Below, piece after piece: positions 10,337-24,277 of a DNA stretch of 64,000 nt. Position numbers and translations under genes: made by a program. The DNA lies in the IMG/VR virus record IMGVR_UViG_2700988807_000001, positions 1 through 64,000 of that record. One strand, given 5' to 3'. The stretch's first letter is position 1; each line of letters starts with the position of its first letter. Source of the stretch: a virus (taxonomy: Duplodnaviria > Caudoviricetes). The notes under the pieces are model-generated. The model saw only the letters and a program-made list of their open reading frames with translations. It did no database searches and was not told where the DNA came from.

Positions 10337-10684
10337 ATGTCCGATGGCAGCATTCTCAATAGCACCAAGAAAGTTCTGGGAATCGACGCCGATTACGATG
10401 CGTTCGACCTAGATGTGATGATGCACATCAACTCCGCCTTTGCGACTCTGAATCAACTTGGTGTAGGACCCGAAGAGGGGTTCATGATCGAGGATGATAC
10501 GGCCACGTGGGGTGACTTCATCGGGAACGACAAACGTCTGAACTCAGTTCCGACTTACGTCTACCTCAAGGTTCAGCTTGTGTTCGATCCTCCCGCAACG
10601 TCGTTCGTTCTCGAAGCTAAGAAGAAGCAGATCGAAGAGTATGAATGGCGACTCAACGTGGTCGTGGAAGGAGACCGAGCATGA
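10337..10684 (+). CDS. Head-tail connector/adaptor-like protein
   Basis: GGAGGTG RBS; SIL.S.KK.LGI..DYDAFD.D...HINS pattern typical of gp6-like head completion proteins. Confidence 0.55.
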   Translation: MSDGSILNSTKKVLGIDADYDAFDLDVMMHINSAFATLNQLGVGPEEGFMIEDDTATWGDFIGNDKRLNSVPTYVYLKVQLVFDPPATSFVLEAKKKQIEEYEWRLNVVVEGDRA

Positions 10685-12276
10685 CAGAGAACAAGACGTG
10701 GTGCATCGTAGCTCTTCCTGAAGAAGAAAGCCCTGTGTGGCGGGAATCGAGCGAAAAGGTTCCTCACATGACGCTTCTCTTCTTGGGTGAGCAGGATGAT
10801 CCCAAGAAGGCTGAGGAGATCGCCACTTTCCTTCAGCATGCAGTCAACACCAGCCTCACCAAGTTCTCGATGAGTGTCAAGGATCGTGGCGTTCTCGGAG
10901 AAGATGACGCTGACGTCCTGTTCTTCGACACGAAGACGGTTCCTCAGCAGCTCATTGAGTTCCGAAAGTTCCTGCTTCAGGACGCCACCATTCGGTCCTG
11001 CTACGATTCCGCTTTCCAGTATCCGTCTTGGACACCCCATGTGACAATGGGTTATCCGAAGACGCCGGCAAAGAAGACCAACGATCCATACCCGGTTCGA
11101 ACGGTTTACTTCGATCGAATCGCATTGTGGGTCATGGACTACGACGGCCCGACGTTCGATCTCGATTGGGAGCGAGGCGATTACGCTGACCCTTACTCCG
11201 ACTCCGATCAACTTTCTGTTCCAGGAGAATTGGCAATGAGTAGCATGCCCTCACCGAGCAACTTCCGTCATCTCGGGGTTGGTGGAAAGCATACTCCTCC
11301 TCGCGATCCTCTGGCTGTTGCTCTCGTCCCCGCAACACAGCGGGCCGAGCGTTCGGCGATCGATATTGCGAACAACGCACGCTATCTCCAGCATTACGCT
11401 GCTGGTAAGCGGTTCGACGATCCAGCCGACCCGGTATCGCAGAGCTATATTCGAGAGAACCAGCTGGCCTTTCTCGAACATCTGAACAAGATGGCTGGAG
11501 GAACGAAGTTCGAGAAGGAGAAGCGTCGGTATGACATCAGCACTTCGCCCGAGGGCGATTGGGTGCTGTCGACCATCGATCTTCTGACTCATGCTGGTCT
11601 CGTTGAGACTCGCATTCGGCCGATCACTGACGACCGCGGTCGCATCTTCAAGTATGCTCTTCTTTCCGATGCCATCGAGCCCGGCGATATTCAAGGCGCC
11701 ATGATGCATTACGGCATCAAGGGTATGAAGTGGGGCGTTCGACGTAAGGCTGGTGCTGACGGAACGGTCGGCGGAAGTTCTGGCAGTTCGGGTGGCGGCG
11801 ACAGCGGTGGTTCTGGTGGAGATGGTGGCGGGTCTCCGCTCTCCAGGCTTCGTCAGAAGCAGACCACCAAGCAGAAGATCCAACAGAAGATCAACCGTCC
11901 CATGACCGAAGACGCCAAAGATGCGGCAGCTGGTCGGAGGACGTCTGGTCAACACGGTACCGACGCCCTCTCGAACAAGGAGCTCAAAGCTCTTGTCGAG
12001 CGGATGAACCTGGAACAGCAGTATGCCCAGCTCCAGGCAAACGGTAAAGCGAAGACCGCTCGTCAGGCAGGTCAGTCGTACATCTCCGAAATTCTTCAGG
12101 AGCAGGGTAAGGCTCTTATCGGAGAGGCGATCAACTTCGCCGTCAAGGAAGGCTTCAAGTACGCGTTCGATCAGGCTCGGGGCGGTAGTGGATCTGGTAG
12201 CGGTGCTAACCAGGCCAACGCTCAGCGTCTGACTCCGCTCGCCATCGAAGCTGCTCGGCGGGCCATCACTCGGTAA
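10681..12276 (+). CDS. 2H-phosphoesterase (2'-5' RNA ligase-like) fused to an internal HYG(I/V)KGMKWG module
   Basis: Two HxT motifs (PHMTLLFLG, PHVTMGY); internal MMHYGIKGMKWGVRR near 11701; ATG 10681 overlaps the previous stop. Confidence 0.72.
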   Translation: MTENKTWCIVALPEEESPVWRESSEKVPHMTLLFLGEQDDPKKAEEIATFLQHAVNTSLTKFSMSVKDRGVLGEDDADVLFFDTKTVPQQLIEFRKFLLQDATIRSCYDSAFQYPSWTPHVTMGYPKTPAKKTNDPYPVRTVYFDRIALWVMDYDGPTFDLDWERGDYADPYSDSDQLSVPGELAMSSMPSPSNFRHLGVGGKHTPPRDPLAVALVPATQRAERSAIDIANNARYLQHYAAGKRFDDPADPVSQSYIRENQLAFLEHLNKMAGGTKFEKEKRRYDISTSPEGDWVLSTIDLLTHAGLVETRIRPITDDRGRIFKYALLSDAIEPGDIQGAMMHYGIKGMKWGVRRKAGADGTVGGSSGSSGGGDSGGSGGDGGGSPLSRLRQKQTTKQKIQQKINRPMTEDAKDAAAGRRTSGQHGTDALSNKELKALVERMNLEQQYAQLQANGKAKTARQAGQSYISEILQEQGKALIGEAINFAVKEGFKYAFDQARGGSGSGSGANQANAQRLTPLAIEAARRAITR

Positions 12277-12292
12277 TTGAAAGGTATTTGCG

Positions 12293-14038
12293 ATGGGGTT
12301 GTCGAACACCGCAGTTCCGATTTACTACGGAAAGTTCCGTGAAGCGGTGCTCAATGGTGAGATTCCGGTAAACCGAGAAATCTCCATGGAGATGAATCGC
12401 ATCGACGACCTCATCGCAAATGACAACATCTATTACGATGACCAGGCTGTCGAGGGATTCATTCGCTATTGTGAAAACGAGATGACTCTGACCGATGGTT
12501 CAGATCTTCATCTCTTGGATTCGTTCAAACTTTGGGCCGAACAAATCTTCGGATGGTACTACTTCGTCGAACGAAGTGTCTACGAACCTTTCGAAGACAA
12601 TCACGGTGGGCGGTACGTCAACAAGGTTGTGAAGAAACGACTGATCACTAAGCAGTATCTGATCGTCGCCCGAGGCGCAGCCAAGTCGCTCTATGAGTCT
12701 CTTCTCCAGAGCTACTTCCTCAATGTCGACACACAGACCACCCATCAGATCACGACCTCGCCGACCATGAAGCAGTCCGAGGAAGTGATGGCCCCGTTCC
12801 GAACCGCGATCACTCGTGCAAGAGGACCGCTGTTCGAATTCCTTACCGAGGGTTCTATGCAGAACACCACGGGTAATAGGTTTGCTAGGCAAAAGTTGGC
12901 TTCCACCAAGAAGGGTATCGAGAACTTCTTGACGGGCTCCATGCTAGAAGTTCGCCCGATGTCCATCAACAAGCTGCAGGGTCTTCGACCCAAGGTCTCG
13001 ACGGTGGACGAATGGTTGTCCGGCGACATCCGAGAGGACGTCATCGGCGCCATCGAACAGGGCGCGTCCAAGCTTGACGACTACTTGATCGTTGCCGTCA
13101 GCTCGGAGGGAACTGTTCGAAACGGGTCGGGCGACACTATCAAAATGGAACTTGCAGACATCCTCAAGGGGGAGTACTCTGCGCCGCACGTCTCCATCTG
13201 GCATTACAAGTTGGACAATCTCGAAGAGGTTGGTCGACCTGAGATGTGGTTGAAGGCGAACCCCAACCTCGGTAAGACCGTAACTTACGAAACTTACCAG
13301 TTGGATGTAGAACGAGCTGAGAAAGCGCCTGCATCTCGAAACGATATCTTGGCTAAGCGATTCGGAATCCCTATGGAGGGGTACACCTACTTCTTCACTT
13401 ATGAAGAGACGATTCCTCATCGTCGTCAAAGCTTCTGGCGTCAGCCTTGTGCTCTCGGCGCTGACCTTTCGCAGGGCGATGATTTCTGTGCGTTCACGTT
13501 CTTCTTCCCTCTTCGAAACGGGAAGTTCGGAATCAAGACTCGCAGCTACATCACCGAACTAACGTTGATGAAGTTGCCTGGCGCACTCCGACACAAGTAC
13601 GACGAATTCGTTGCCGAAGGCAGCTTGCACGTAATGCCCGGCACCATCTTGGAGATGATGGACGTCTACGACGATCTGGATAATCACATCCAAGACTGCG
13701 AGTACGACGTTCGAGCTTTCGGATTCGACCCGTACAACGCTAAAGAGTTCGTTGCTCGCTGGGAAGCTGAGAACGGACCGTTTGGTATCGAGAAGGTCAT
13801 TCAGGGTTCCAAGACCGAATCGGTTCCTCTGGGTGAGCTCAAAATTCTAAGTGAAGAGCGTTGTCTGATCTTCGACGAAAGCCTGATGTCGTTCACGATG
13901 GGTAACGCCATCACTCTGGAAGACACGAATGGTAACCGCAAGCTTCTCAAGAAGCGACAGGAAGAGAAGATCGATAACGTCGCAGCCATGATGGATGCCT
14001 ACATCGCCTACAAGGCGAACAAGGAAGCGTTCATCTAA
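12293..14038 (+). CDS. Terminase large subunit
   Basis: Walker A VARGAAKS, Walker B STVDEW, nuclease LGADLS..DD, FDPYNA, KIDNVAAMMDA. Confidence 0.92.
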   Translation: MGLSNTAVPIYYGKFREAVLNGEIPVNREISMEMNRIDDLIANDNIYYDDQAVEGFIRYCENEMTLTDGSDLHLLDSFKLWAEQIFGWYYFVERSVYEPFEDNHGGRYVNKVVKKRLITKQYLIVARGAAKSLYESLLQSYFLNVDTQTTHQITTSPTMKQSEEVMAPFRTAITRARGPLFEFLTEGSMQNTTGNRFARQKLASTKKGIENFLTGSMLEVRPMSINKLQGLRPKVSTVDEWLSGDIREDVIGAIEQGASKLDDYLIVAVSSEGTVRNGSGDTIKMELADILKGEYSAPHVSIWHYKLDNLEEVGRPEMWLKANPNLGKTVTYETYQLDVERAEKAPASRNDILAKRFGIPMEGYTYFFTYEETIPHRRQSFWRQPCALGADLSQGDDFCAFTFFFPLRNGKFGIKTRSYITELTLMKLPGALRHKYDEFVAEGSLHVMPGTILEMMDVYDDLDNHIQDCEYDVRAFGFDPYNAKEFVARWEAENGPFGIEKVIQGSKTESVPLGELKILSEERCLIFDESLMSFTMGNAITLEDTNGNRKLLKKRQEEKIDNVAAMMDAYIAYKANKEAFI

Positions 14039-14057
14039 TCGAGAAAGGTGCTCTACA

Positions 14058-14198
14058 GTGAGCGATCTTAGTTATTCCGCCGTGAAGAGAAGTCCCGAAA
14101 AGCATCTCTTTGCTTTCGCTCTCTCGAGCCTTCCGAATCCAGACGACGCTGTGATTGACGGCGACAACACCGAAGGGGAAATCGATGGCAACGTTTGA
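14058..14198 (+). CDS. Small hypothetical protein (46 aa)
   Basis: GAAAGGTG RBS then GTG; fills the gap after terminase. Confidence 0.3.
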   Translation: MSDLSYSAVKRSPEKHLFAFALSSLPNPDDAVIDGDNTEGEIDGNV

Positions 14199-14574
14199 TA
14201 CCGAAGATTTTCTCGCCCACTACGGCGTTAAGGGAATGAAGTGGGGTGTAACTCGCGCCGCCCCGGAAGTTCGAGTTGCTCGAAAGGCTGCTCGAAAGCA
14301 AGCTCGTCGGGATCTCGACACAGTAATGGCTGTGAACGAGATCAAGCGTAGAGAAGCGGCCTCTACTATGACGTCTGGTAAGAAGTTTCTTTCCGACATG
14401 GGTGCCGTCGGTAGTGCTTACACCGGGACGAGCATTAGCCGTGCAGCGGGTTACAGCAGAGGGCAAGCTAAAGTTATCTCGATTCTAGGCGGCGGACCTC
14501 TTTACGGACCTCTTACCGCCGGCGTTGCTGCGGAGCTCAAGATTCGCAAGGACGTCCGCTCCAGCATTCGATGA
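14185..14574 (+). CDS. HYG-leader family protein 1
   Basis: Starts MATFDTEDFLAHYGVKGMKWGV; basic C-terminus. Confidence 0.8.
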   Translation: MATFDTEDFLAHYGVKGMKWGVTRAAPEVRVARKAARKQARRDLDTVMAVNEIKRREAASTMTSGKKFLSDMGAVGSAYTGTSISRAAGYSRGQAKVISILGGGPLYGPLTAGVAAELKIRKDVRSSIR

Positions 14575-14588
14575 GGGGTGGGTGAATC

Positions 14589-15254
14589 ATGAGCTCAGAC
14601 GTTGATTCCTTCCTTGCCCACTACGGTGTCAAGGGGATGAAGTGGGGTGTTCGTAAGAAAAGTTCTGGTGAATCTTCTGGAGGATCTTCTGAAGAGCATC
14701 CCGTTCGGGACCATAACGGTAAACTTTCGCTGAAGAACCCTAAAGTTCGACGTGCTGCCGTTGTTGGTGCTTCTGTCGTTGCTATTGGCGCTGCAGCTTT
14801 TGTTGCTTCTCGATACATGGATAAACCAGTCGATACACAAAGCATCAAAAAAGGTGCCGAAAAGGTTGCCGATATTCTGCAGCAACCGACCGACATAATC
14901 TACATGTCTAAGCCACATAAAGGTTCAGGATCCAGAACTACTCTAGGGTTTGTTTCTGAAGGACAAACCAAAGACTACTTCAAAATCTTCGATGACGCAG
15001 GTCTAAACTCTGATGGGTTTAAGCCGGGCGATTTCAAAAAGTTGAGTAACGGAAACGTTGCCACCTACATCGCGGACATGATGGGTCGAGTTGATAGTGC
15101 TGGACGAAAGGTTCCGCATGTTGTTTTGATTCCAGCCGACAAAGCAGTTGGTTTGAACAGCATGGAGGACGTGGTCAAGAAGTATGGGCCAGAGCTAGAG
15201 CGTAGGTATCAGACCTACTTGGAGGAACGCCGAAAGACGACGCCGGAAGTGTAG
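14589..15254 (+). CDS. HYG-leader family protein 2
   Basis: MSSDVDSFLAHYGVKGMKWGV; hydrophobic helix; unique C-terminal domain. Confidence 0.8.
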   Translation: MSSDVDSFLAHYGVKGMKWGVRKKSSGESSGGSSEEHPVRDHNGKLSLKNPKVRRAAVVGASVVAIGAAAFVASRYMDKPVDTQSIKKGAEKVADILQQPTDIIYMSKPHKGSGSRTTLGFVSEGQTKDYFKIFDDAGLNSDGFKPGDFKKLSNGNVATYIADMMGRVDSAGRKVPHVVLIPADKAVGLNSMEDVVKKYGPELERRYQTYLEERRKTTPEV

Positions 15255-15258
15255 GGAG

Positions 15259-16104
15259 GTGATTGATACCATGTCTGATATTGATTCCTTCCTCGCCCAC
15301 TACGGCGTCAAAGGAATGAAGTGGGGTGTCACAAAAGACCAGCATCGCGAGTACAAAGAAGTTGCTTCTCGTGACACCACAAACATGGTCAAACGAGCCG
15401 GCTCAACGGTTCAGATGACTCGCTACTTCTCTCAGGGCGGCACTCTGAAGAAGCAGCAGAAGTATACGCAGGATTGGTACGACAAGCTCGAAGGCGGAAA
15501 GGAGTTCATCGAAAAGGGTGCTTCTCTAAACCGCGTCGTTCGAGGTGTCGACGACAGAGCCCTTGCCGGTCGCTTGTATGTTTCCAAACTGAAGAGCGAC
15601 AACGAGATGTACAAAGCTGTCATTCCTGCCGTTCAGAAGAAATTCGCTTTCGGTCAAAAGCAATACCACTCGGTGTATCAGGTGGAGCTCGAAACCAAGA
15701 AGCGATTGGCGATGCCTTCTCAGAAAGAACGCGTCGACGCCTTCATCGAAACCATTCAGACGCCTACCGGGCGAGAATGGATGAAGAAGAATGGCTACAA
15801 GCGCGAGATCGATGAGCTCAACGCCAAGGAGATGGGCCTCAAGGCGTACAAGAAGTTCAATAAGTATGCTGGCGACCAGGGCTCCAAGATGAATGACGCT
15901 TACTTCAACAAACTGAAGTCTCGCGGCTATGATGCTCTCATCGACGACAACGATGCGGGCATTTGGAGTAAGAAGCCGATGATTCTGCTGTCTCCGAGCA
16001 GCACAGTAAAGGTGAAGAGCGTTAGGCAACTTACTGCTGACGAGATCAACCAGGCTCAGCGAAACGTTCTCAAGGACCGTGACTTCAAGGAAAGGCGGTC
16101 GTGA
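15259..16104 (+). CDS. HYG-leader family protein 3 with ADP-ribosyltransferase-like C-terminal domain
   Basis: Leader; KG..LNR...LYVS...Y...GYDALIDDND...KPMILL pattern shared with 16101 and 18201 (ATG 15271 is an alternative start). Confidence 0.7.
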   Translation: MIDTMSDIDSFLAHYGVKGMKWGVTKDQHREYKEVASRDTTNMVKRAGSTVQMTRYFSQGGTLKKQQKYTQDWYDKLEGGKEFIEKGASLNRVVRGVDDRALAGRLYVSKLKSDNEMYKAVIPAVQKKFAFGQKQYHSVYQVELETKKRLAMPSQKERVDAFIETIQTPTGREWMKKNGYKREIDELNAKEMGLKAYKKFNKYAGDQGSKMNDAYFNKLKSRGYDALIDDNDAGIWSKKPMILLSPSSTVKVKSVRQLTADEINQAQRNVLKDRDFKERRS

Positions 16105-17147
16105 TGAGTGCAGACACTGACGACTTCCTTGCCCACTACGGTGTCAAGGGAATGAAGTGGGGCGTTATTCGGTCCGATCCTTCTGGCGGGAAGAAAACCG
16201 GTTCTAGTGTCGACAGAGAATTTTCGGACGAAAGGGTCGCTAAAGCCCTTAGCGATTTTTACAAAACGAAAAGTTCTGAGCAGCTAAACGCCGAAGCCCA
16301 AGTCAAACTTCGCGCACAAGCCGATCGCGTTCATGCTCACAAACCCGAAAGCGATAAGTCTTCCGACACAGACGCTTTTCAGGAAAAACTTGTTCCTGGC
16401 GGTTACACTCGAAACCAAAAGATCGCAATTGGTGTTGGTGCTGCTGTCGCGGTCGGACTTCTCGGCTATACTGCTCACAAAACTGTCTTCGCAAGACAAG
16501 GGACAGCAAGGGCTCTCGAGTCCGAGTGGTCTGGTTTGTTCGGGACAAAGGCGGACGTTTCCAGAGAACGTGCTGGCGAATTTCACGGCAGCTCTTTTGG
16601 TGGGCTTAAAAACGGAAAAGCTCTAGATCGTCCTGGATTTACGATTCCTAAATCGACAACGTTTCAGCGTCTATCCGGTCATGCTGAAAGTGGCGCTGAT
16701 TATTCTTCAGGAACTTATGCGACGTTCTTGTCTAATGACAAAAGAGTTTATGGTCGATCTGAAGAATTCGGTACCAAGAAGTATACGCTTCAGTTTCAAG
16801 CGACAGAAGACATTCGCGTTCCGTCTACTAAGACGGTGCTTGACACTTTACGTAAAAACATGACCGAAAGCAATAAGGGCGTTGTGCCTAGAGACCAAGA
16901 CGTCATGTTTTCCTACCACAGCATGTCTGGTGGCGAATGGAAGAGTTCCAATAGTCAACGTTTGATTGAAAGCCTTAAGAAGCAAGGTTACTCAGCGATA
17001 GTTGACGACATGGATGCCGGCTATCTTGGGGATCTCCCGGTACTTTTCTTTGGGGAAACAAGAAGCGTTAAGGCGAAAAAGCGATCGATGCTTGACTACG
17101 CTATGGATTATAACGCGGCACTACCTCTACTTCAAACCTATGCGTAA
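16101..17147 (+). CDS. HYG-leader family protein 4 with ADP-ribosyltransferase-like C-terminal domain
   Basis: Leader; KIAIGVGAAVAVGLLGY helix; FQR...TYAT...LKKQGYSAIVDDMD...PVLFF. Confidence 0.7.
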   Translation: MMSADTDDFLAHYGVKGMKWGVIRSDPSGGKKTGSSVDREFSDERVAKALSDFYKTKSSEQLNAEAQVKLRAQADRVHAHKPESDKSSDTDAFQEKLVPGGYTRNQKIAIGVGAAVAVGLLGYTAHKTVFARQGTARALESEWSGLFGTKADVSRERAGEFHGSSFGGLKNGKALDRPGFTIPKSTTFQRLSGHAESGADYSSGTYATFLSNDKRVYGRSEEFGTKKYTLQFQATEDIRVPSTKTVLDTLRKNMTESNKGVVPRDQDVMFSYHSMSGGEWKSSNSQRLIESLKKQGYSAIVDDMDAGYLGDLPVLFFGETRSVKAKKRSMLDYAMDYNAALPLLQTYA

Positions 17148-17203
17148 GTCTAGGCGGAACAACAAGAGCAGCGCCGGCAGAGATTTCCCCGAGGAGGTGA
17201 AAC

Positions 17204-18199
17204 GTGAGTGATACAAATTCGGATTACGTAGACGACTTCCTAGCCCACTACGGTGTCAAGGGGATGAAGTGGGGTGTCAAGAGATCTGATGCCCAGTTGG
17301 CAAGGGCGTCGGGAGGCCGTCAAAATGGGAGTGATGGCGCATCCGATTCTGCACCTAAGCAGGGGATGAGTCGTAAGAAGAAGATCGCTATCGGTGCCGG
17401 TGTTGTTGGTGGCGTAGCCCTGGTTGCTCTGGGCGCCTATGCCGTCAACAAGCAGATCGATACGAACAAACTTCGAACTCTTGGCGAGATGCGAAAGCAG
17501 GCCGAAGCAAATTTGGCTGGTAAAAAGGCCGCTCAAGCGCAGATCCAAGCCTTCGGTAAGAAGTCTAAGTGGGAGCTTGCGTCGGAACTTCCGGCCAAAC
17601 CCAAGAAGTCGCCTATGACTCAGTCCGAGTACAAAGCCCAGGCACAAGCCAAGGTTAAGGCTCGGGCAGACGAGTTGATTGCTAAATCGGGCTCAAAGCC
17701 GATGGGTAAGGCGGCTCGTCGAAAGGCTGCTGAGCAGCAAGCAATTCAGGAACACTTCAACAAGTTTGCCAAGAAGTCTTTCCTGGATCTCGCTACCGAA
17801 CTTCCTTCCGCACCGAAGCAACCTAAGTTGTCTCGCAAGGAAGCGAAGAGTCGAACTAACGAGGCGGTTCGAAGGGCTACTGAAACTCAGCAGATCAACA
17901 GTAGGTTGAATGCTGTCCGAGGAATCCTTGACAAGTCGGGTTCTACTCCGGCTCGAAAGGCTGGCTCTTCGTACACTTCTCGCGATCGAAAGAACGACAC
18001 CAAGCTTTACGGTACCGAGGGCGCTGCTCGAATTCAGAAGCGAATCTCTAAGGGAACGCTCCTTTCCGAGGCACGACGCAAGGAAGCTACTCGACAGTAT
18101 GGCGTGAAAGCCGCTCGAGTTGGAATGAACATCGGGTCGGCTGGACGTCGAGAGTCGAAAGACTACGAGCGTCTGAGGAAGCAAGCTGGAAGGGGCTAG
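17204..18199 (+). CDS. HYG-leader family protein 5, highly basic
   Basis: Leader; KKIAIGAGVVGGVALVALGAY helix; Lys/Arg/Ala-rich with internal repeat (KKS..LA.ELP..PK). Confidence 0.78.
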   Translation: MSDTNSDYVDDFLAHYGVKGMKWGVKRSDAQLARASGGRQNGSDGASDSAPKQGMSRKKKIAIGAGVVGGVALVALGAYAVNKQIDTNKLRTLGEMRKQAEANLAGKKAAQAQIQAFGKKSKWELASELPAKPKKSPMTQSEYKAQAQAKVKARADELIAKSGSKPMGKAARRKAAEQQAIQEHFNKFAKKSFLDLATELPSAPKQPKLSRKEAKSRTNEAVRRATETQQINSRLNAVRGILDKSGSTPARKAGSSYTSRDRKNDTKLYGTEGAARIQKRISKGTLLSEARRKEATRQYGVKAARVGMNIGSAGRRESKDYERLRKQAGRG

Positions 18200-18200
18200 G

Positions 18201-19283
18201 GTGACTGCGGTTGTGGAGATCGATGACTTCCTAGCCCACTACGGTGTCAAGGGAATGAAGTGGGGCGTTATTCGGGATCGAGATTCTGGATCCAGATCTT
18301 CTGGTTCAGGAACTTCTGGGCCCGTTAGAACAAGACAAAGCACGGCCCTCGAAGCGAAGTATATTCAGAAGGGACACGACCTCGAAACCGCTCAGCAAAA
18401 GGCGGCTAAGCGAGCGAAAGTTCAAAAGGTTCTTCTAGTCGCCGGTGCAGTAACTCTCGCCGGCACAGCAGCTTATGTGGGACATAAAGAATACGGCAAA
18501 CGATTCACGAACGTTGTTCTTGAAAAAGGCGCCGATCTAAAGTACATCAACGCTTTGGGTCCTCAGGCGGATTACAATCGTCGTTTGTATACCACATTCA
18601 ACGAGGGCGATACCAAAAAGTATCGTGGTATGTTGGCCAAGCAGCTTCAGAAGAATGGATTGAGTAGTAAAACCATTTATGAAACGACGCTTCGTGCGAC
18701 AGAAACTATTAAGGCTCCTTCGCACCGAGAAGCCGAAAAGATTTACAAGGATCTGATCAAGCGGAAAGACATCTACCCCAAGGAATACGGGCGGATGCTC
18801 TCTTATAAAGAATTCAACGCCGGCCTGATTCGCAGTAGCGCGGACGGCAAGGAATTCTACAACGCTCTCAAGAAGAAGGGCTTCAATGCCGTTCTAGACT
18901 CGAATGATCAGTTCGTTTCTGGTTACAACACGAAGAAGCCGTTGATTCTGTTCAACGCAGCTTCGAGCACAGTGAAGACTGGCGAAAAGATCGTCGAACA
19001 GAAGACTATCGATGGGTTGTATGCTCGACAGGTCGCTGGGGTTATGGCCAGACAGTTTGCTCCAGTGGCAGCTGTTGGTGCGGCAGCCGTTGGCGCACAT
19101 AAGTACATTGAATCAAAGAACAAGTATGCTGTCGTGAACAAGTATTTGGATGAGCATCCGAATTCGAAGCGGTCCCCCGCAGAGATCTATGCGAGCCTTC
19201 AAGTGCAGCCGAACGGTCTGTATGAGGTTCCCGATCTTACCGCCGTCAGCAAGCCTCCTAAGAAGGGTGGTTCCAAGAAGTGA
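18201..19283 (+). CDS. HYG-leader family protein 6 with ADP-ribosyltransferase-like C-terminal domain
   Basis: Leader; hydrophobic helix; EKG..LKY...LYTT...LKKKGFNAVLDSND...KPLILF. Confidence 0.7.
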   Translation: MTAVVEIDDFLAHYGVKGMKWGVIRDRDSGSRSSGSGTSGPVRTRQSTALEAKYIQKGHDLETAQQKAAKRAKVQKVLLVAGAVTLAGTAAYVGHKEYGKRFTNVVLEKGADLKYINALGPQADYNRRLYTTFNEGDTKKYRGMLAKQLQKNGLSSKTIYETTLRATETIKAPSHREAEKIYKDLIKRKDIYPKEYGRMLSYKEFNAGLIRSSADGKEFYNALKKKGFNAVLDSNDQFVSGYNTKKPLILFNAASSTVKTGEKIVEQKTIDGLYARQVAGVMARQFAPVAAVGAAAVGAHKYIESKNKYAVVNKYLDEHPNSKRSPAEIYASLQVQPNGLYEVPDLTAVSKPPKKGGSKK

Positions 19284-19396
19284 AGTATCTATTGAAGGTT
19301 CTCGACTTCTTGATCGGGAATCGCCTTGATCGACCGGAGCTTCGAGAGCTTCATCGTCAGCACCAGATCAACGCTCGTCAAAATGGGAGTGAATAA
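19280..19396 (+). CDS. Small hypothetical protein (38 aa)
   Basis: GTG overlaps the previous stop and TAA overlaps the next ATG (VKYLLKVLDFLIGNRLDRPELRELHRQHQINARQNGSE). Confidence 0.35.
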   Translation: MKYLLKVLDFLIGNRLDRPELRELHRQHQINARQNGSE

Positions 19397-19935
19397 TGGA
19401 TGATGTTGACGACTTCCTTGCCCACTACGGTGTCAAGGGAATGAAGTGGGGGCAACGTAAGAATAGTCTCCCTGGAGTCTCAGCCAAGACGAATCGCGAT
19501 GCTCGAAAAGACGCGGAAGAGTTTGCCCGAGCAAAGATGTTCTACGGGACAGGCGCCGGTAATCGACGGAAGCTCATTAAGAGTACCGTCGAAGCTAAGT
19601 CGAAGGACCCCGCATACAAGTCTGCTTTCGACCATCATCTCGCCAACCAGGACATGGGGAAGCACGCGTCAAAGGCAAAGTCTGAACGTCGTCGTAAGGA
19701 TGTCGGTGGAGGTGCGGCCAAGACGGCTCGCGGTGTTCATCGTCAGCTGACTGGCGGATTCGGAAGCGTTTCTTTGGCTTCGGCAGTGCTTGCCGGTGCC
19801 TACGTCGGAGCCCGTAAAACCGGCGTCGATCAAGTCATCATGAACGCTGCAAAGCAAAGACTCGGTGACGTGAAAAGCAAGCAGACCGACAAGAAGAACG
19901 TCAACGAGTGGATGAAGAAGAACGGTTTCCTCTGA
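19396..19935 (+). CDS. HYG-leader family protein 7
   Basis: MDDVDDFLAHYGVKGMKWGQRK; basic helical body. Confidence 0.8.
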   Translation: MDDVDDFLAHYGVKGMKWGQRKNSLPGVSAKTNRDARKDAEEFARAKMFYGTGAGNRRKLIKSTVEAKSKDPAYKSAFDHHLANQDMGKHASKAKSERRRKDVGGGAAKTARGVHRQLTGGFGSVSLASAVLAGAYVGARKTGVDQVIMNAAKQRLGDVKSKQTDKKNVNEWMKKNGFL

Positions 19936-19976
19936 TCCCCAACGTAGACACGCCAACTGGAGAAAGGAGGTGACTT

Positions 19977-21317
19977 ATGGCTAGCGTCTCTAAAAAGCTG
20001 ATGCACGCATACAACGTCTTTACATCGGTAGATCATCATGAGACCACTTCGAGTGAGTTTTATGGAATGTCTACCTATGGTGGTCGTCCAGATCGTGTCA
20101 GAGCACCAAACGTAATGGCTGCGCGATCAATCATCTCGTCGATTTACACTCGGCTAGGGATTGACATTGCGTCGGTTCAGCTTCGACACGTTCGACTGGA
20201 TGAGCAAGACCGATTCTTGGAGAACATCGACAGTGGTTTGAACAACTGTCTAACTGTCGAGGCAAACATCGATCAGGGTTCACGGGACTTTCGTCAGGAC
20301 ATCGCTATGACACTCTGCTCCAAGGGGTATCTGGCGATCGTTCCCATCGAAACCACGCTCAACCCGAAGATCTCTGGATCGTATGACATTCAAACCATGC
20401 GGGTCGGAGAGATTACGGCTTGGTATCCCAGGCACGTTCGTGTCAGTCTCTATAACGAAGCCGTTGGTCGACGCGATGAGATCGTGGTCGAAAAGAGGCA
20501 TGTTGCTGTCGTAACAAACCCTCTATATTCGATCATGAACGAGCCGAACTCGACTCTTCAACGTCTCGTCAGGAAATTGAGCCTCCTTGATTCGGTGGAT
20601 GAAGCGTCTGCGTCGGGGAAGCTCGACATGATCATCCAGCTTCCATACGTCGTCAAGTCTGATGCTCGAAAGAAGCAGGCAGAACAGCGACGAGCTGATC
20701 TTCAGGAACAGCTCACCGGAAGCAAGTACGGAATCGCTTACACGGACGGTACTGAGAAGATTACTCAGCTCAACCGTCCTGTCGAAAACAATCTCATGGG
20801 ACAGATCACATATCTCACCGGAGAGCTGTACGCACAGCTTGGTTTGACGGCTGAGGTTATGAATGGTACTGCCGATGAGAAGACGATGCTGAACTATTGG
20901 AATCGAACCATCGAACCAATGGTCGCTTCCATTACCGAAGAGTTGCATCGTACGTTCTTGACAAAGACTGCTCGATCTCAGAGACAAGCGGTTCGATATT
21001 TCCGAGATCCGTTCAAGCTCGTGCCTATCGAGAACATTGCGGAGATCGCAGACAAGTTCACTCGAAACGAGATTCTCACTTCGAATGAGATTCGTCAGGT
21101 GGTCGGCTTCAAGCCGGCTGGCGATCCCAAGGCAGATCAGCTCGTCAACAGCAACATGCCGCAAGCGGTAACTGGTGTTGGTGTTGAAGCTGCTGCTCCG
21201 TCTCCGACCACATCGACCGACCCCAACGAAGAGAAGACCGCTACGTTGGTGAACAGTGGATTGGATTCGTTGAACTCCCAGCTCGATGGCATATTCAACG
21301 ACCTGGGAGGAGAATGA
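19977..21317 (+). CDS. Portal protein
   Basis: 446 aa, AAGGAGG RBS, HK97-like portal features (NEIR...GFKP..DPKADQL); lies between terminase and capsid. Confidence 0.85.
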   Translation: MASVSKKLMHAYNVFTSVDHHETTSSEFYGMSTYGGRPDRVRAPNVMAARSIISSIYTRLGIDIASVQLRHVRLDEQDRFLENIDSGLNNCLTVEANIDQGSRDFRQDIAMTLCSKGYLAIVPIETTLNPKISGSYDIQTMRVGEITAWYPRHVRVSLYNEAVGRRDEIVVEKRHVAVVTNPLYSIMNEPNSTLQRLVRKLSLLDSVDEASASGKLDMIIQLPYVVKSDARKKQAEQRRADLQEQLTGSKYGIAYTDGTEKITQLNRPVENNLMGQITYLTGELYAQLGLTAEVMNGTADEKTMLNYWNRTIEPMVASITEELHRTFLTKTARSQRQAVRYFRDPFKLVPIENIAEIADKFTRNEILTSNEIRQVVGFKPAGDPKADQLVNSNMPQAVTGVGVEAAAPSPTTSTDPNEEKTATLVNSGLDSLNSQLDGIFNDLGGE

Positions 21318-21318
21318 G

Positions 21319-21969
21319 TTGTCGTCTCGATCCCAGCTCTTCATTGAGGCGGTGTTTGCAGATCGTCGCACTCTGATCCATGAGTACGATCCTGTCAAAG
21401 CTCGTGAGTATTATTTGCGTACTCGAGAGCTCAAGGGTCGTCAGCCAGCCCAGGCCGAAGAGCCTGAGTCGGTTCGTAACGCTCGACAAGCGGCTGCTGC
21501 GGCTGAAGAAGCTAAGCAGAAAGTCGAAGCCGAGCGTAAGTCTCGTCGACAAGAGCTGAAGACCAAACTTGCCGACCTGGAGGCTCGACTCAAAAAGTTG
21601 AACGCCGCCATCAAGCAAGCCAAAGCTGCAGCGATGCGTCGAGCAGGGGTGTCTGAAGAAACCCTGAACCGAATGATCACCCAAGAGGTGAAGAGTCCTG
21701 GTAGTTCCAAAGGCATGAAAGACAAAGCCGAGGACTCGAAAGACTCAAAAGACTCGTCCGACTCTTCCGATGACAAACCGAAAACTGCTGCGCAAAAACG
21801 AAAAGATGCCAAGGCGGCAAAAGAGCGGTATGAAGAAGAGAAGGACAAGAATCCCGAAGCTGATAATGGCGATGCTGAGCTTCAAGAACTACAGGACAAG
21901 GTCGATTCGACTGCTGAGCGAATCGAGAAACTTCAAAAGAGAGTTCAAGCCATCGCCAGAATTGGCTGA
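21319..21969 (+). CDS. Coiled-coil head-associated hypothetical protein
   Basis: TTG start after GGAGG; LIHEYDPVKAREYYLRTRELKGR, then a long charged coiled coil. Confidence 0.6.
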   Translation: MSSRSQLFIEAVFADRRTLIHEYDPVKAREYYLRTRELKGRQPAQAEEPESVRNARQAAAAAEEAKQKVEAERKSRRQELKTKLADLEARLKKLNAAIKQAKAAAMRRAGVSEETLNRMITQEVKSPGSSKGMKDKAEDSKDSKDSSDSSDDKPKTAAQKRKDAKAAKERYEEEKDKNPEADNGDAELQELQDKVDSTAERIEKLQKRVQAIARIG

Positions 21970-21977
21970 AAGGAAAC

Positions 21978-22097
21978 ATGATGGTTCACGTATTTCAGTT
22001 TGATCCCATCAAGCTCGACTTCGTCGCTACTGATGGAAGTCGATTCGACAGTGAACAGGAAGCGAGCCGACATGTCGACAAACTCAACGGCTCTTAG
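21978..22097 (+). CDS. Small hypothetical protein (39 aa)
   Basis: GAAAGGA RBS, ATG, open frame MMVHVFQFDPIKLDFVATDGSRFDSEQEASRHVDKLNGS. Confidence 0.45.
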   Translation: MMVHVFQFDPIKLDFVATDGSRFDSEQEASRHVDKLNGS

Positions 22098-22117: not shown

Positions 22118-24277
22118 ATGACCCACATGAAGCCTGATTTCGGCGGGTATGCAACCAAGGCCAATCTCAGGTGCTCCGACGGTCGAACCATCCTTCCCGA
22201 TGCTTTCAAGCATATGGATGGCATGAAGGTTCCTCTCGTATGGCAGCACGCCCACGGCGAACCCACTAACGTACTCGGTCATGCCCTTCTCGAAGCTCGT
22301 GACGGAAGCATGTACTGCCACGGGTTCTTCAACGAAACCGATGCCGGCAAGCATGCGAAGAATCTCGTCGCCCACGGCGATATCAACGCGCTTTCCATTT
22401 ACGCCAATAAGCTCGATGAGCACAACAGGGCGGTCAAGCACGGCCAGATCCGTGAAGTAAGTCTCGTGTTGGCTGGTGCAAATCCCGGAGCATTGATTGA
22501 CAATGTGAACATTGCCCATGGCGATGGTTCGATCACCACTCTGGACGATGATGTTCTTATCTACACAGACGAAACGATCGAACTCACCCATTCAGAAGAG
22601 GACAACATGACTATCGCACATGCTGACGATGAGGACCTCACCGTCCAGGACGTCTTCGAGACGATGAATGAGCAGCAGCAGGAAGTTGTTCATTTCCTGG
22701 TCGGAGAGGCTCTCGCTGGAGCCGGCGCCTCCGCTAGCCACGCTGCTGGTGACGAGGAAGACGACAGCGAAGATGACGGTAAGGACAAGACCGTCAAGGA
22801 GATCTTCGACAGCATGACTGAAGAGCAGCAGAATGTTGTCTTCTTCATGGTCGGCCAGGCTGTTCAGGAGGCCGAAAAGGCTTCCGCCAACAAGTCTTCG
22901 GACACCGAGTCCGGCGACGACAAGACCGCTAAGCACGCAGATACCCTCTCGGAAGGATCCAACATCATGAGCCACAACGTCTTCGAGCGCGCTGCCCTTT
23001 CGGCCGACGACACCAACGGCAAGGCCCTGTCCCACTCGGAGATCGTCGAGGCCACGTCGAGCATCTTCTCGGCTGCCGCTCGCACCGGCTCCATCAAGGA
23101 GGCCGCGGAGGAGTACGCCCTCAAGCACGGCATCGAGGACATCGACGTTCTGTTCCCGGACGCCAAGGCTGTCACCGCCACGCCCGAATTCATCAAGCGT
23201 CGCACCGAGTGGGTCTCCGAGGTCATGAGCGGTTCGCGCCACACCCCGTTCTCCCGCATCAAGAGCCTGACGGCCAACCTGACCTTCGACGATGCCCGCG
23301 CCAAGGGTTACGTCAAGGGCAACATGAAGAAGGAAGAGTTCTTCCGGGTCGCCAAGCGAGTCACCACCCCGCAGACCGTCTACAAGAAGCAGAAGCTGGA
23401 TCGGGACGACGTCCTGGACATCACCGATTTCGACGTTGTCGCCTGGCTCAAGGGCGAGATGCGTCTCATGCTCGATGAGGAAATCGCTCGCGCGGTTCTC
23501 ATCGGTGACGGTCGCTCGGCCGAGGACGAGGACAAGATCTCGGAGGAGCACATCCGTCCGATCGCTAACGATAGCGACCTCTTCGTCACCTACGTGAACG
23601 TCGACCTGAGCGGCGGCACGGCTGACAAGATCGTCGATGCTCTGACCCTGCAGCGTCGTCACTACCGTGGTTCGGGCAACCCGACCTTCTTCACCAGCGA
23701 GACCATCCTCGCTCAGATGCTGCTGCACAAGGATTCGCTGGGTCGCCGCATCTACGCGACGACTGCCGACCTCGCGGCCGCTCTGCGCGTCTCGAAGATT
23801 GTCACGGTCGAGATCATGGATCAGCCGTCGGTGGATGTCGTCGGCATCATGGTCAACCTGCAGGACTACACCATCGGTGCGGACAAGGGCGGCGACGTTT
23901 CGCTGTTCGACGACTTCGACATCGACTACAACCAGCACAAGTACCTGATCGAGTCCCGTCTGTCGGGCGCCCTCACGCGTCCCAAGTCGGCTCTCGTGGT
24001 CAAGGCTGTTGCCAAGTCCTCGACCCTCGTCACCCCCGAGGCTCCGACCTGGGATCCCGAGGACAAGACCGTGACGGTTCCGACCGTCGAGGGTGTCGTC
24101 TACAAGAACAAGAAGACGAACGCTACCCTGACCACGGCTTCGCCCGTCACCCTGAACGTCGGTGAAGAGCTGCACGTGATCGCCCTGCCGGCCTCGTCGA
24201 GCTACTACCTGGCCTCGACCGCTGAGGACGAGTTCCTCTTCGATTACGAGGATGGCATGCTCGGCGGCGCATTCTGA
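22118..24277 (+). CDS. Capsid maturation protease - scaffold - major capsid protein fusion
   Basis: N-term prohead protease (LVWQH, LSIYA, REVSLVLAGANPGA); acidic scaffold with duplicated TV..(V/I)F..M.E.QQ.VV.F.VG; HK97-like capsid; strongly biased codon usage. Confidence 0.85.
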   Translation: MTHMKPDFGGYATKANLRCSDGRTILPDAFKHMDGMKVPLVWQHAHGEPTNVLGHALLEARDGSMYCHGFFNETDAGKHAKNLVAHGDINALSIYANKLDEHNRAVKHGQIREVSLVLAGANPGALIDNVNIAHGDGSITTLDDDVLIYTDETIELTHSEEDNMTIAHADDEDLTVQDVFETMNEQQQEVVHFLVGEALAGAGASASHAAGDEEDDSEDDGKDKTVKEIFDSMTEEQQNVVFFMVGQAVQEAEKASANKSSDTESGDDKTAKHADTLSEGSNIMSHNVFERAALSADDTNGKALSHSEIVEATSSIFSAAARTGSIKEAAEEYALKHGIEDIDVLFPDAKAVTATPEFIKRRTEWVSEVMSGSRHTPFSRIKSLTANLTFDDARAKGYVKGNMKKEEFFRVAKRVTTPQTVYKKQKLDRDDVLDITDFDVVAWLKGEMRLMLDEEIARAVLIGDGRSAEDEDKISEEHIRPIANDSDLFVTYVNVDLSGGTADKIVDALTLQRRHYRGSGNPTFFTSETILAQMLLHKDSLGRRIYATTADLAAALRVSKIVTVEIMDQPSVDVVGIMVNLQDYTIGADKGGDVSLFDDFDIDYNQHKYLIESRLSGALTRPKSALVVKAVAKSSTLVTPEAPTWDPEDKTVTVPTVEGVVYKNKKTNATLTTASPVTLNVGEELHVIALPASSSYYLASTAEDEFLFDYEDGMLGGAF

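Follow-up and report, generated by a model that had tools for sequence, protein, structure and literature searches.

The window analysed here comprises 64,000 nucleotides, the left 64 kb of the 76,797-base Rhodococcus phage record IMGVR_UViG_2700988807_000001. Between the genes for the large terminase subunit (TerL) and the portal protein it contains a run of seven genes, g1 to g7, whose products begin with the same short peptide and continue into different payloads. An eighth copy of this peptide, referred to below as the tag, lies within an open reading frame (ORF) upstream of TerL. The closest named relative of the phage is Rhodococcus phage ReqiPoco6 (Pepyhexavirus), with 88.6% identity across the aligning 69% of query positions 12000-22000. 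The eight tagged genes are:

10645..12276, + strand: ORF 10645-12276, 543 residues; predicted N-terminal 2H phosphoesterase domain, middle region, internal DUF7211 tag, Gly/Ser linker and basic tail (Pfam)
14185..14574, + strand: g1, 129 residues; tag and short basic payload ending in a weakly hydrophobic segment (PF23847 52.9 bits; phrog_14126); an alternative TTG start lies at 14155
14589..15254, + strand: g2, 221 residues; tag, transmembrane (TM)-like Gly/Ala helix and a payload without assigned fold (PF23847 57.4 bits; phrog_38171, E 1.2e-126)
15259..16104, + strand: g3, 281 residues; tag and predicted ADP-ribosyltransferase (ART)-like payload, an NAD-utilising toxin fold (phrog_7502; AlphaFold2 model)
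16101..17147, + strand: g4, 348 residues; the tag and a TM-like helix are followed by a payload paralogous to that of g3 (phrog_7502, E 3e-88)
17204..18199, + strand: g5, 331 residues; the tag precedes a TM-like helix and a strongly basic payload resembling a coiled coil (end-to-end match to phrog_35934, labelled 'virion structural protein', at E 5.8e-222)
18201..19283, + strand: g6, 360 residues; laid out like g4, with a payload paralogous to that of g3 that is extended at the C-terminus (phrog_7502, E 6.5e-109)
19396..19935, + strand: g7, 179 residues; tag followed by a basic domain that is helical and conserved; directly precedes the portal gene (phrog_6291)

The tag and its payloads

All seven products g1 to g7 open with the invariant 13-residue FLAHYGVKGMKWG, which together with Met1 makes up the only invariant columns of their alignment, and the consensus of the approximately 20-residue linear peptide can be written (D/E)(D/E)-F-L-A-H-Y-G-V-K-G-M-K-W-G-V-R. 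The tag corresponds to DUF7211 (PF23847), a 25-position family that Pfam lists as a domain of unknown function. All eight proteins scanned matched it at the cut-off of 27 bits, g1 to g7 with 51.2-57.8 bits and the internal copy at residues 352-368 of ORF 10645-12276 (DNA 11695-11748) with 35.1 bits, and the entire record holds exactly these eight matches over the cut-off plus one weak ninth. At the DNA level, a 38-nucleotide leader pattern was found seven times at up to two mismatches, once per gene, and 0 times in each of 100 shuffled sequences. The original prediction for this locus had reported seven genes with a near-invariant leader and an eighth copy inside the gene upstream of TerL, and both observations hold.

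At the synonymous positions of the tag copies, identical codons are shared at a frequency of 0.706, compared with 0.448 +/- 0.046 expected from genome codon usage, a value that 0 of 500 simulations reached; the leader DNA in the window is more alike than the protein requires. A general DNA- or RNA-level role of the 38-mer was considered and rejected, because the codon excess is missing from five of the eight multi-copy genomes and the peptide is kept across very different G+C contents. We read the excess as reflecting recent duplication or gene conversion in some lineages and not a general nucleic-acid signal. Searches of the published literature for DUF7211 by name or for the motif strings returned nothing relevant, and the tag is not mentioned in the accessible parts of the genome papers on this lineage, which deal with phages of Arthrobacter (PMC5513430), Rhodococcus, and Actinobacteria/Firmicutes (bioRxiv 10.1101/842583).

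Behind the tag, the payloads of g3, g4 and g6 all belong to phrog_7502, and those of g1, g2, g5 and g7 fall into four different PHROGs, in keeping with the earlier description of the C-termini as unrelated or paralogous. Most of the proteins had been called very basic, and the isoelectric points (pI) are 9.1-10.5 for all seven. The Gly/Ala hydrophobic helix attributed to several of them is found in g2, g4, g5 and g6, where the segment sits after a Ser/Gly/Arg/Lys-rich stretch; the best 19-residue Kyte-Doolittle means are 2.12 in g2, 2.06 in g5, 1.65 in g4 and 1.58 in g6, weaker in g7 (1.41) and g1 (1.28), and the same scan detected no such helix in g3. A MuF domain (PF04233) was absent from the Pfam scan of the eight tagged proteins at E <= 0.1, and no T4 family was named among the Pfam and PHROG matches of g1 to g7, no direct comparison with T4 sequences having been made.

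The payload of g3 was modelled with AlphaFold2 from a 21-sequence alignment, giving a mean predicted local distance difference test (pLDDT) score of 75.6, with residues 1-47, including the tag, below 50 and residues ~60-273 folded confidently. Structural comparison matched the model best to MbcT (VIA-align Z 8.3, root-mean-square deviation 3.9, 143 residues; Foldseek probability 1.00) and to the catalytic domain of diphtheria toxin (VIA Z 6.6), and the further VIA/Foldseek matches comprised SAIP, NatT, ParT, RES, Tse6, Tne2, Arr, cholera toxin, KptA, pierisin and DarT. ART, NADase or RES chains fill rows 1-34 of the VIA list and most of those from there down to rank 44, so that the list is uniform in kind, though its Z values are moderate. 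The g3 payload is predicted from this model to have the fold of the ART superfamily, and g4 and g6 carry paralogous payloads of the same predicted fold; a Pfam match to PF03496 (ART) was found in none of the three.

The g7 product is 45-83% identical to 15 homologues from related loci and is a widespread core member of the arrays. Its AlphaFold2 model is helical (pLDDT 66) and gave no Foldseek match at E <= 0.001; as in the g3 model, the tag (pLDDT 56-57) lies outside the payload fold. Structure prediction, which had been suggested as a check, was informative for the g3 payload and left that of g7 without a structural match. For ORF 10645-12276, the N-terminal domain matches PF13563 with 30 bits (cut-off 27) and contains the H-x-T motifs HMTL and HVTM in translation, and a match of 33.8 bits to the NCBIfam 2',3'-cyclic phosphodiesterase falls under the cut-off of that model. 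The domain is accordingly placed, on profile and motif grounds, in the 2H phosphoesterase superfamily. A search of this ORF against PDB sequences returned nothing but low-complexity linker matches.

Distribution, turnover and a tagged candidate polymerase

A search with the 28-residue leader located 863 tag places in 228 of 50,697 phage records, with Arthrobacter (95 records), Gordonia (55), Streptomyces (54), Curtobacterium (7), Lactococcus (4), Microbacterium (3) and Faecalibacterium (2) among the hosts, besides others. The tag-bearing phages are the inter-phylum group described in bioRxiv 10.1101/842583, and the tag system is a hallmark of this lineage, which includes Lactococcus phage 1706, Arthrobacter AM/AU, Gordonia DJ, Streptomyces BI and Rhodococcus Pepy6/Poco6. 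We further examined IMG/VR loci, taking the best 80 of 270 stretches encoding a relative. A homologue of the window TerL stands next to the tag ORFs in 78 of these 80 loci and a portal gene is present in 71, with 0-7 tag ORFs per locus (mode 3). Of the tag ORFs in the 69 loci that have TerL as well as the portal gene, 126 sit between these two genes, 87 are at most 4 kb upstream of TerL, one is further upstream and none is past the portal. The array flanks TerL, as ORF 10645-12276 does here, and is not tied to the gap between TerL and portal. The original placement of the tag as a leader in that gap is correct for the seven window genes and does not hold in general: the tag is internal in many relatives, and it flanks TerL on both sides.

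The window and the 80 loci together contain 274 modules in ~60 payload families, a number that is approximate because single-linkage clustering joined the g7 payload with the tail of ORF 10645-12276; a direct profile comparison of these two gave a probability of 0.4%, and their treatment as one family was dropped. BLAST matches among related ORFs and database proteins number 24 for g7-type modules and 71 for modules of the ORF 10645-tail type. The arrangement had been described as an address tag plus swappable payload, and one tag ahead of ~60 families bears out this description. Domains recorded on tag-bearing relatives are GNAT, 2H phosphoesterase, the ADP-ribosyltransferase exotoxin PF03496 and the papain-fold glutamine deamidase toxin PF15644, and one tag-bearing relative is labelled 'membrane protein'. 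Phage 2H enzymes such as Acb1 degrade defence nucleotides. The 2H and ART-like domains of the window and the GNAT, PF03496 and PF15644 domains of relatives may form a host-modifying or counter-signalling repertoire, with an anti-defence role suggested by the domain types.

The content of the array also changes between close relatives. TerL of the window phage is 99% identical to that of ReqiPoco6, and the orthologue identities are 97% for g3, 93% for g5 (gp020), 83% for g7 and 77% for g6 (gp021), with g1 and gp018 sharing 39%; no ReqiPoco6 counterparts were found for g2 and g4, and none in the window for ReqiPoco6 gp022, a difference of three cassettes. Collinear DNA blocks between the two phages span 12000-14259, 15288-16165, 17227-19463 and 19389-21500, and every internal block end falls within ~12 nucleotides of a tag copy, homology restarting at the tag and not at the start codon. 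This pattern is consistent with cassettes having been gained and lost as tag repeats recombined, and agrees with the suggestion that the leader could serve as a recombination point. Among the 29 loci that extend far enough to either side of TerL, the payload sets were different in 2 of the 8 pairs whose TerL proteins are >=95% identical, in 5 of the 6 pairs in the range 85-95% and in all 214 pairs in the range 70-85%; a comparison of payloads across relatives had been named as a check, and it revealed turnover and no fixed orthologous set. A non-coding gap of 112 nucleotides separates g6 from g7 (19284-19395), where ReqiPoco6 has the extra cassette gp022, and is possibly a scar of cassette loss.

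The weak ninth DUF7211 match is the N-terminus of a 904-residue ORF that lies outside the window (L085:3044-5758; record G000:C1:73543-76257). This ORF has a GADFDGD loop and helix-turn-helix domains at both ends, and matches PF05183 with E 0.0045 and 16.2 bits, below the cut-off of 23.8 bits. We regard it as a candidate YonO/crAss-like RNA polymerase, named after RefSeq labels of homologues and after bioRxiv 10.1101/842583, which ties this lineage's protein to crAss/YonO-type polymerases. It starts with a variant tag, DEDDYLAHYGILRRSGRYPWGSG, read D-E-D-D-Y-L-A-H-Y-G-I-L-R-R-S-G-R-Y-P-W-G-S-G, and the variant Phi-L-x-H-Y-G-x-x-R-x-S-G-R-Y-P-W-G-S-G opens 16 of the 16 unique polymerase homologues examined. 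The polymerase is present in 249 phage records, its counts for Arthrobacter (95), Gordonia (55), Streptomyces (54) and Curtobacterium (7) being the same as those of the tag.

Annotations of homologues suggest, indirectly, that the products may be found in virions. The polymerase homologue of ReqiPoco6 is labelled 'structural protein' by similarity to the 1706 gp75 structural protein, and ReqiPoco6 gp020, the orthologue of g5, is labelled 'virion structural protein' and is similar to the gp07 structural protein of Lactococcus phage 1706. The latter (L115:2501-3889) is encoded just upstream of TerL and contains two degenerate tags, LQHRGVIGMRWG and LLHKGVKGMKWG. Because degenerate tags are found in gp07 of this Firmicutes phage, the tag system spans two bacterial phyla. 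For the tagged proteins of the window itself, such homologue annotations are the only indication that they would be present in the virion.

Polyproteins and the fused protease-capsid precursor

Database proteins found with the leader often carry more than one tag (75 of 129, 63 with two tags and 12 with three), as do 55 of 141 further cluster representatives (27 with two, 18 with three and 10 with four tags, at lengths up to 1,136 residues), and therefore relatives encode as a single chain what the window phage has as separate genes. The 141 representatives came from a 281-position profile that included full-length g3 and were re-scanned by regular expression; the 3,990 matches of this profile at E <= 0.001 are proteins with the tag, a g3-type payload or both, and were not used as a tag count. 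A Pfam check of polyproteins returned 3-4 DUF7211 copies with GNAT or 2H domains between them. In P0034, the 'acetyltransferase' of Gordonia phage Secretariat, and its relative P0049, the order is tag, GNAT, Phi-x-H site, tag, hydrophobic helix and a papain-fold toxin-like domain, the last of which matches PF15644 in the precomputed annotation of P0049 and shows Cys and His motifs.

Internal tags are commonly preceded by a putative cutting site. The motif [LIVMFAT]-x-[H/Q] occurs 9-22 residues upstream of the tag His in 100 of 125 unique internal tags, with a peak at -10/-11, compared with 26% at random positions; this set includes a few start-site artefacts, the ORF caller taking the first start codon, and a second set, which like the residue tables uses database proteins only, has the motif in 82 of 105 internal tags. 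After the site, P1' is S, D or A and P2' is D or E. A cut at this position would yield N-termini like S-D-x-V-D-D-F-L-A-H-Y-G, matching the starts of the stand-alone genes after Met. Many polyprotein modules finish with a small 'hxLxLDxxGxIxxI'-like element right before the Phi-x-H/Q site (e.g. P0156, P0172 and P0180).

Comparable sites are found in the capsid precursor, which is encoded in the head module around the array:

10337..10684, + strand: head-tail connector protein, conserved at the upstream edge of the module (Pfam Phage_connect_2, E 7.5e-42)
12293..14038, + strand: TerL, large terminase subunit, flanked by tagged genes in the lineage (Pfam TerL_nuclease, E 1.8e-30)
19977..21317, + strand: portal protein (Pfam Phage_portal, E 1.5e-16)
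21286..21969, + strand: charged coiled-coil protein (composition; sub-threshold coiled-coil Pfam match only)
22118..24277, + strand: predicted fusion of S78 prohead protease, helical-repeat linker and HK97-type major capsid protein (Peptidase_S78, Phage_capsid, TIGR01543, TIGR01554)

The connector homologue of ReqiPoco6 is labelled 'virion structural protein', the product of 21286..21969 appears scaffold-like, and genes for an endolysin and a holin lie directly upstream of the array region.

The 22118..24277 product matches PF04586 (Peptidase_S78) over residues 1-161 with 26.7 bits (cut-off 21), PF05065 (Phage_capsid) with 36.4 bits, TIGR01554 with 34 bits over its cut-off, and TIGR01543. These profile matches identify it as an S78 prohead protease fused to an HK97-type major capsid protein, a fusion noted for this lineage in PMC5513430. 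In an alignment of 37 non-redundant homologues, a linker His is kept at three columns (31/37, 33/35 and 36/37), each time with Leu or Ile at P3 and followed by S/A-D/E, preferences that agree with those at the sites before internal tags. Ahead of the capsid domain, the final junction has the consensus [AS]-[FV]-L-[AE]-H-A-x-x-[YH]-G-[IVF]; all 37 sequences have [HY]G[IVF] there, 14 have FLxH and 9 have FLAH. The helical repeat of the linker is present in 1-4 copies among the homologues with a conserved Phi-x-His site before each, as if a scaffold-like linker were cut into units; the window linker (22118-23152) has two copies, of the type KTVxDVFDSMTEEQKxVVxFMIGEAL. The capsid precursor of Lactococcus phage 1706 has the same L-x-H sites.

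Seen against this junction, the tag segment (D/S)-F-L-A-H-Y-G-V looks like a compressed copy of the last capsid junction. We infer that the S78 protease may cut after His or Gln and act on both the capsid precursor and the tagged cargo. As far as is known, an S78-family protease fused to a capsid protein acts inside proheads, so the cargo would have to be in proheads as well. The original proposal of a T4-like leader handled by the prohead protease gains indirect support from the Phi-x-His sites of the capsid precursor and the polyproteins and from the likeness of the junction to the tag.

Proposed head loading of cargo and its alternatives

We favour, at slightly better than even confidence, the explanation that the tag is a head-loading and processing tag for ejected cargo and works like the capsid-targeting sequence of T4. 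The products g1 to g7, ORF 10645-12276 and the distant RNA polymerase would then be the cargo of one head-loading system. The S78 protease, joined via the scaffold-like linker to every capsid subunit, would recognise the tag in the assembling procapsid and cut after His (or Gln) in sites of the form [LIVM]-x-H-[S/A]-[D/E]. Such cutting would free the capsid domain, chop the linker and part the polyprotein modules ~10 residues before each tag, and the leader might also be trimmed between FLAH and YG. The basic cargo would stay with the DNA and exit with it at infection, bringing in a YonO-like RNA polymerase for early transcription and enzymes blunting host signalling or defence, which would be the 2H phosphoesterase and ART-like domains here and GNAT and papain-like domains in relatives. 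The Gly/Ala helices would perhaps insert in the membrane on exit, and the tag DNA repeats would allow cassettes to be gained, lost and swapped by homologous recombination.

The closest known system in function is probably the capsid-targeting sequence of T4. The internal proteins IPI-III and Alt of T4 carry a sequence of 10-20 residues that binds the prohead core and is removed by the gp21 prohead protease, and the head-packaged and ejected payloads of T4 include anti-restriction proteins and an ART, Alt (PMC7411985 and PMC3012670). As in T4, a short N-terminal peptide is shared by otherwise diverse basic proteins, and the leader up to the His measures 10-15 residues. Unlike in T4, the tag sequence is different and, with 13 invariant residues, far more conserved, and the putative P1 residue is His or Gln instead of Glu. 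Moreover, the window phage is a siphovirus of Actinobacteria whose S78 protease is fused to the capsid protein, whereas T4 has gp21 and a separate core; the tag here also stands between polyprotein modules, and packaging and cleavage of its bearers are predicted.

In giant phages of the SPN3US/phiKZ-like type, many head proteins and the major capsid protein are cut at one short motif, AXE, and their propeptides have been proposed to target cargo into the prohead (PMC7411985). These propeptides exceed 100 residues and, unlike the tag, are not one conserved peptide, and the accessible part of PMC7411985 describes neither polyproteins nor cassettes arrayed next to the terminase. A candidate cutting site common to capsid precursor and cargo is a feature that the window phage would share with them. 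MuF polymorphic toxins and 'polyvalent proteins' combine a constant head-incorporation module with variable toxin or enzyme domains and are encoded next to the portal, but the constant part of the present system is a ~20-residue linear peptide without a folded domain, and MuF is missing from its eight tagged proteins. The candidate polymerase resembles the virion RNA polymerases of N4-like and crAss-like phages in being a phage polymerase with a DFDGD motif that is labelled structural in two relatives, its packaging here being suggested by those labels. We know of no counterpart in N4 or crAss of an N-terminal tag common to a polymerase and other cargo.

A further likeness concerns g3. The pre-ejectosome protein of cyanopodophage A4 (PDB 9k3a chain B), an ejection protein stored in the capsid (PMC12002296), has a domain at residues 1419-1643 that is ART-like in fold and matches the g3 model with Foldseek E 6e-4 and VIA Z 6.8 over 164 residues at 13% identity. 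Unlike g3, the A4 protein is a podovirus core protein of >1,700 residues and has no DUF7211 tag. The accessible part of the A4 structure paper (PMC12002296) does not mention ADP-ribosyltransferase in connection with the ART-like domain.

Several observations weigh against head loading of ejected cargo as set out above. Cleavage after His is read from conservation only, and we know of no S78 protease with a specificity for cutting after His. In the sites upstream of tags, the P3 and P1 columns are circular, having been selected on, which leaves P1' and P2' as the independent columns; ~20% of internal tags have no upstream site, and none was found at the usual place before the internal tag of ORF 10645-12276. 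The 13 invariant residues far exceed the needs of a cleavage site, and the codon excess of the window recurs in ReqiPoco6 (reached in 1 of 500 simulations) and in the locus L032 (3 of 500) and is absent in five other multi-copy loci. The 'structural protein' labels of homologues are annotators' notes, partly given by similarity. TM-like helices sit awkwardly with soluble storage inside a capsid. Block ends at tags are partly expected, the tag being the only segment conserved in every gene. Finally, phrog_7502-type payloads (21 members) keep D114, G223, D229, D232 and P240 invariant, and because these residues differ from the canonical R-S-E or H-Y-E sets, the ART-like paralogues g3, g4 and g6 may not be enzymes.

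The tagged proteins could instead be head-internal and structural, serving as scaffold, core or DNA-condensing components in assembly or DNA ejection, which we consider unlikely. Their basic pI of 9.1-10.5, the position of their genes among head genes, the coiled-coil-like g5, the wide occurrence of g7-type and ORF 10645-tail-type modules as core members, and the ART-like paralogues without canonical catalytic residues would all suit such a role. Relatives, however, join bona fide enzyme domains (GNAT, 2H, PF03496 and PF15644) to the tag, and the gain and loss of cassettes between near-identical phages would be unusual for essential structural parts.

Alternatively, the tag might be purely a processing signal at the boundaries of polyprotein modules, without any targeting, so that the products act in the infected cell. 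This possibility, which we hold to be improbable, draws on the Phi-x-H/Q site upstream of ~80% of internal tags and on the resemblance of the tag to the capsid maturation junction. Against it, modules encoded as separate genes, both here and in many relatives, retain the complete tag unchanged although nothing has to be cut. A capsid-fused S78 protease is, as far as is known, active in proheads, where its substrates must then be, and the virion annotations of homologues speak against action in the infected cell alone.

We give similarly little credence to the idea that these are membrane proteins of the infected cell, involved in superinfection exclusion, lysis timing or envelope remodelling, with the tag as a cytoplasmic N-terminal element. 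Gly/Ala segments with Kyte-Doolittle values >1.6 in g2, g5 and g4 (1.58 in g6), a basic N-side that fits the positive-inside rule, the endolysin and holin genes just upstream and the one relative labelled 'membrane protein' are compatible with it, but g3, ORF 10645-12276 and the polymerase have no such helix, and GNAT, ART and 2H payloads need cytoplasmic cofactors or substrates. A membrane function would also leave the polyprotein forms and the capsid-like protease sites unexplained, and homologues bear virion annotations. Least probable is an ordinary tandem-duplicated paralogous family in which the shared N-terminus is merely the slowest-evolving part, as the paralogy of g3, g4 and g6 and the shared-codon excess, with its hint of recent duplication or gene conversion, might suggest, for the payloads of g1, g2, g5, g7 and ORF 10645-12276 are mutually unrelated and the same tag stands ahead of ~60 families, is also internal, and as a variant opens the polymerase.

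Going beyond this, we tentatively propose a lineage-wide, protease-coupled loading code in siphophages of Gram-positive bacteria, a proposal that we hold with clearly less than even confidence. The peptide FLAHYG...WG would mimic the capsid maturation junction and tether any protein that follows it to the protease-scaffold-capsid fusion, with the result that this protein would enter the head, be cleaved behind the His and later be injected. Both the YonO-like RNA polymerase and a set of fast-exchanged enzyme effectors would be loaded by this code, the effectors being encoded as single cassettes or as polyproteins and shuffled by recombination within the tag DNA.

The loading and delivery of proteins with the DNA is poorly known for phages outside T4 and a few giant phages, and nothing comparable has been described for the large collection of actinobacteriophages. 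New here are the lineage-wide tag, its polyprotein forms, the shared Phi-x-His sites, the cassette turnover at the tag, the enzyme and toxin domains among the payloads of relatives with the ART-like fold of g3, g4 and g6, and the variant tag of the polymerase. If the explanation is right, the cargo of several hundred sequenced phages could be read off directly from the peptide, which would also lead to an RNA polymerase delivered by the virion, to counter-defence enzymes made in advance and to a His-specific prohead protease. Being short and portable, the peptide could moreover serve as a tag with which chosen foreign proteins are packaged into siphophage heads.

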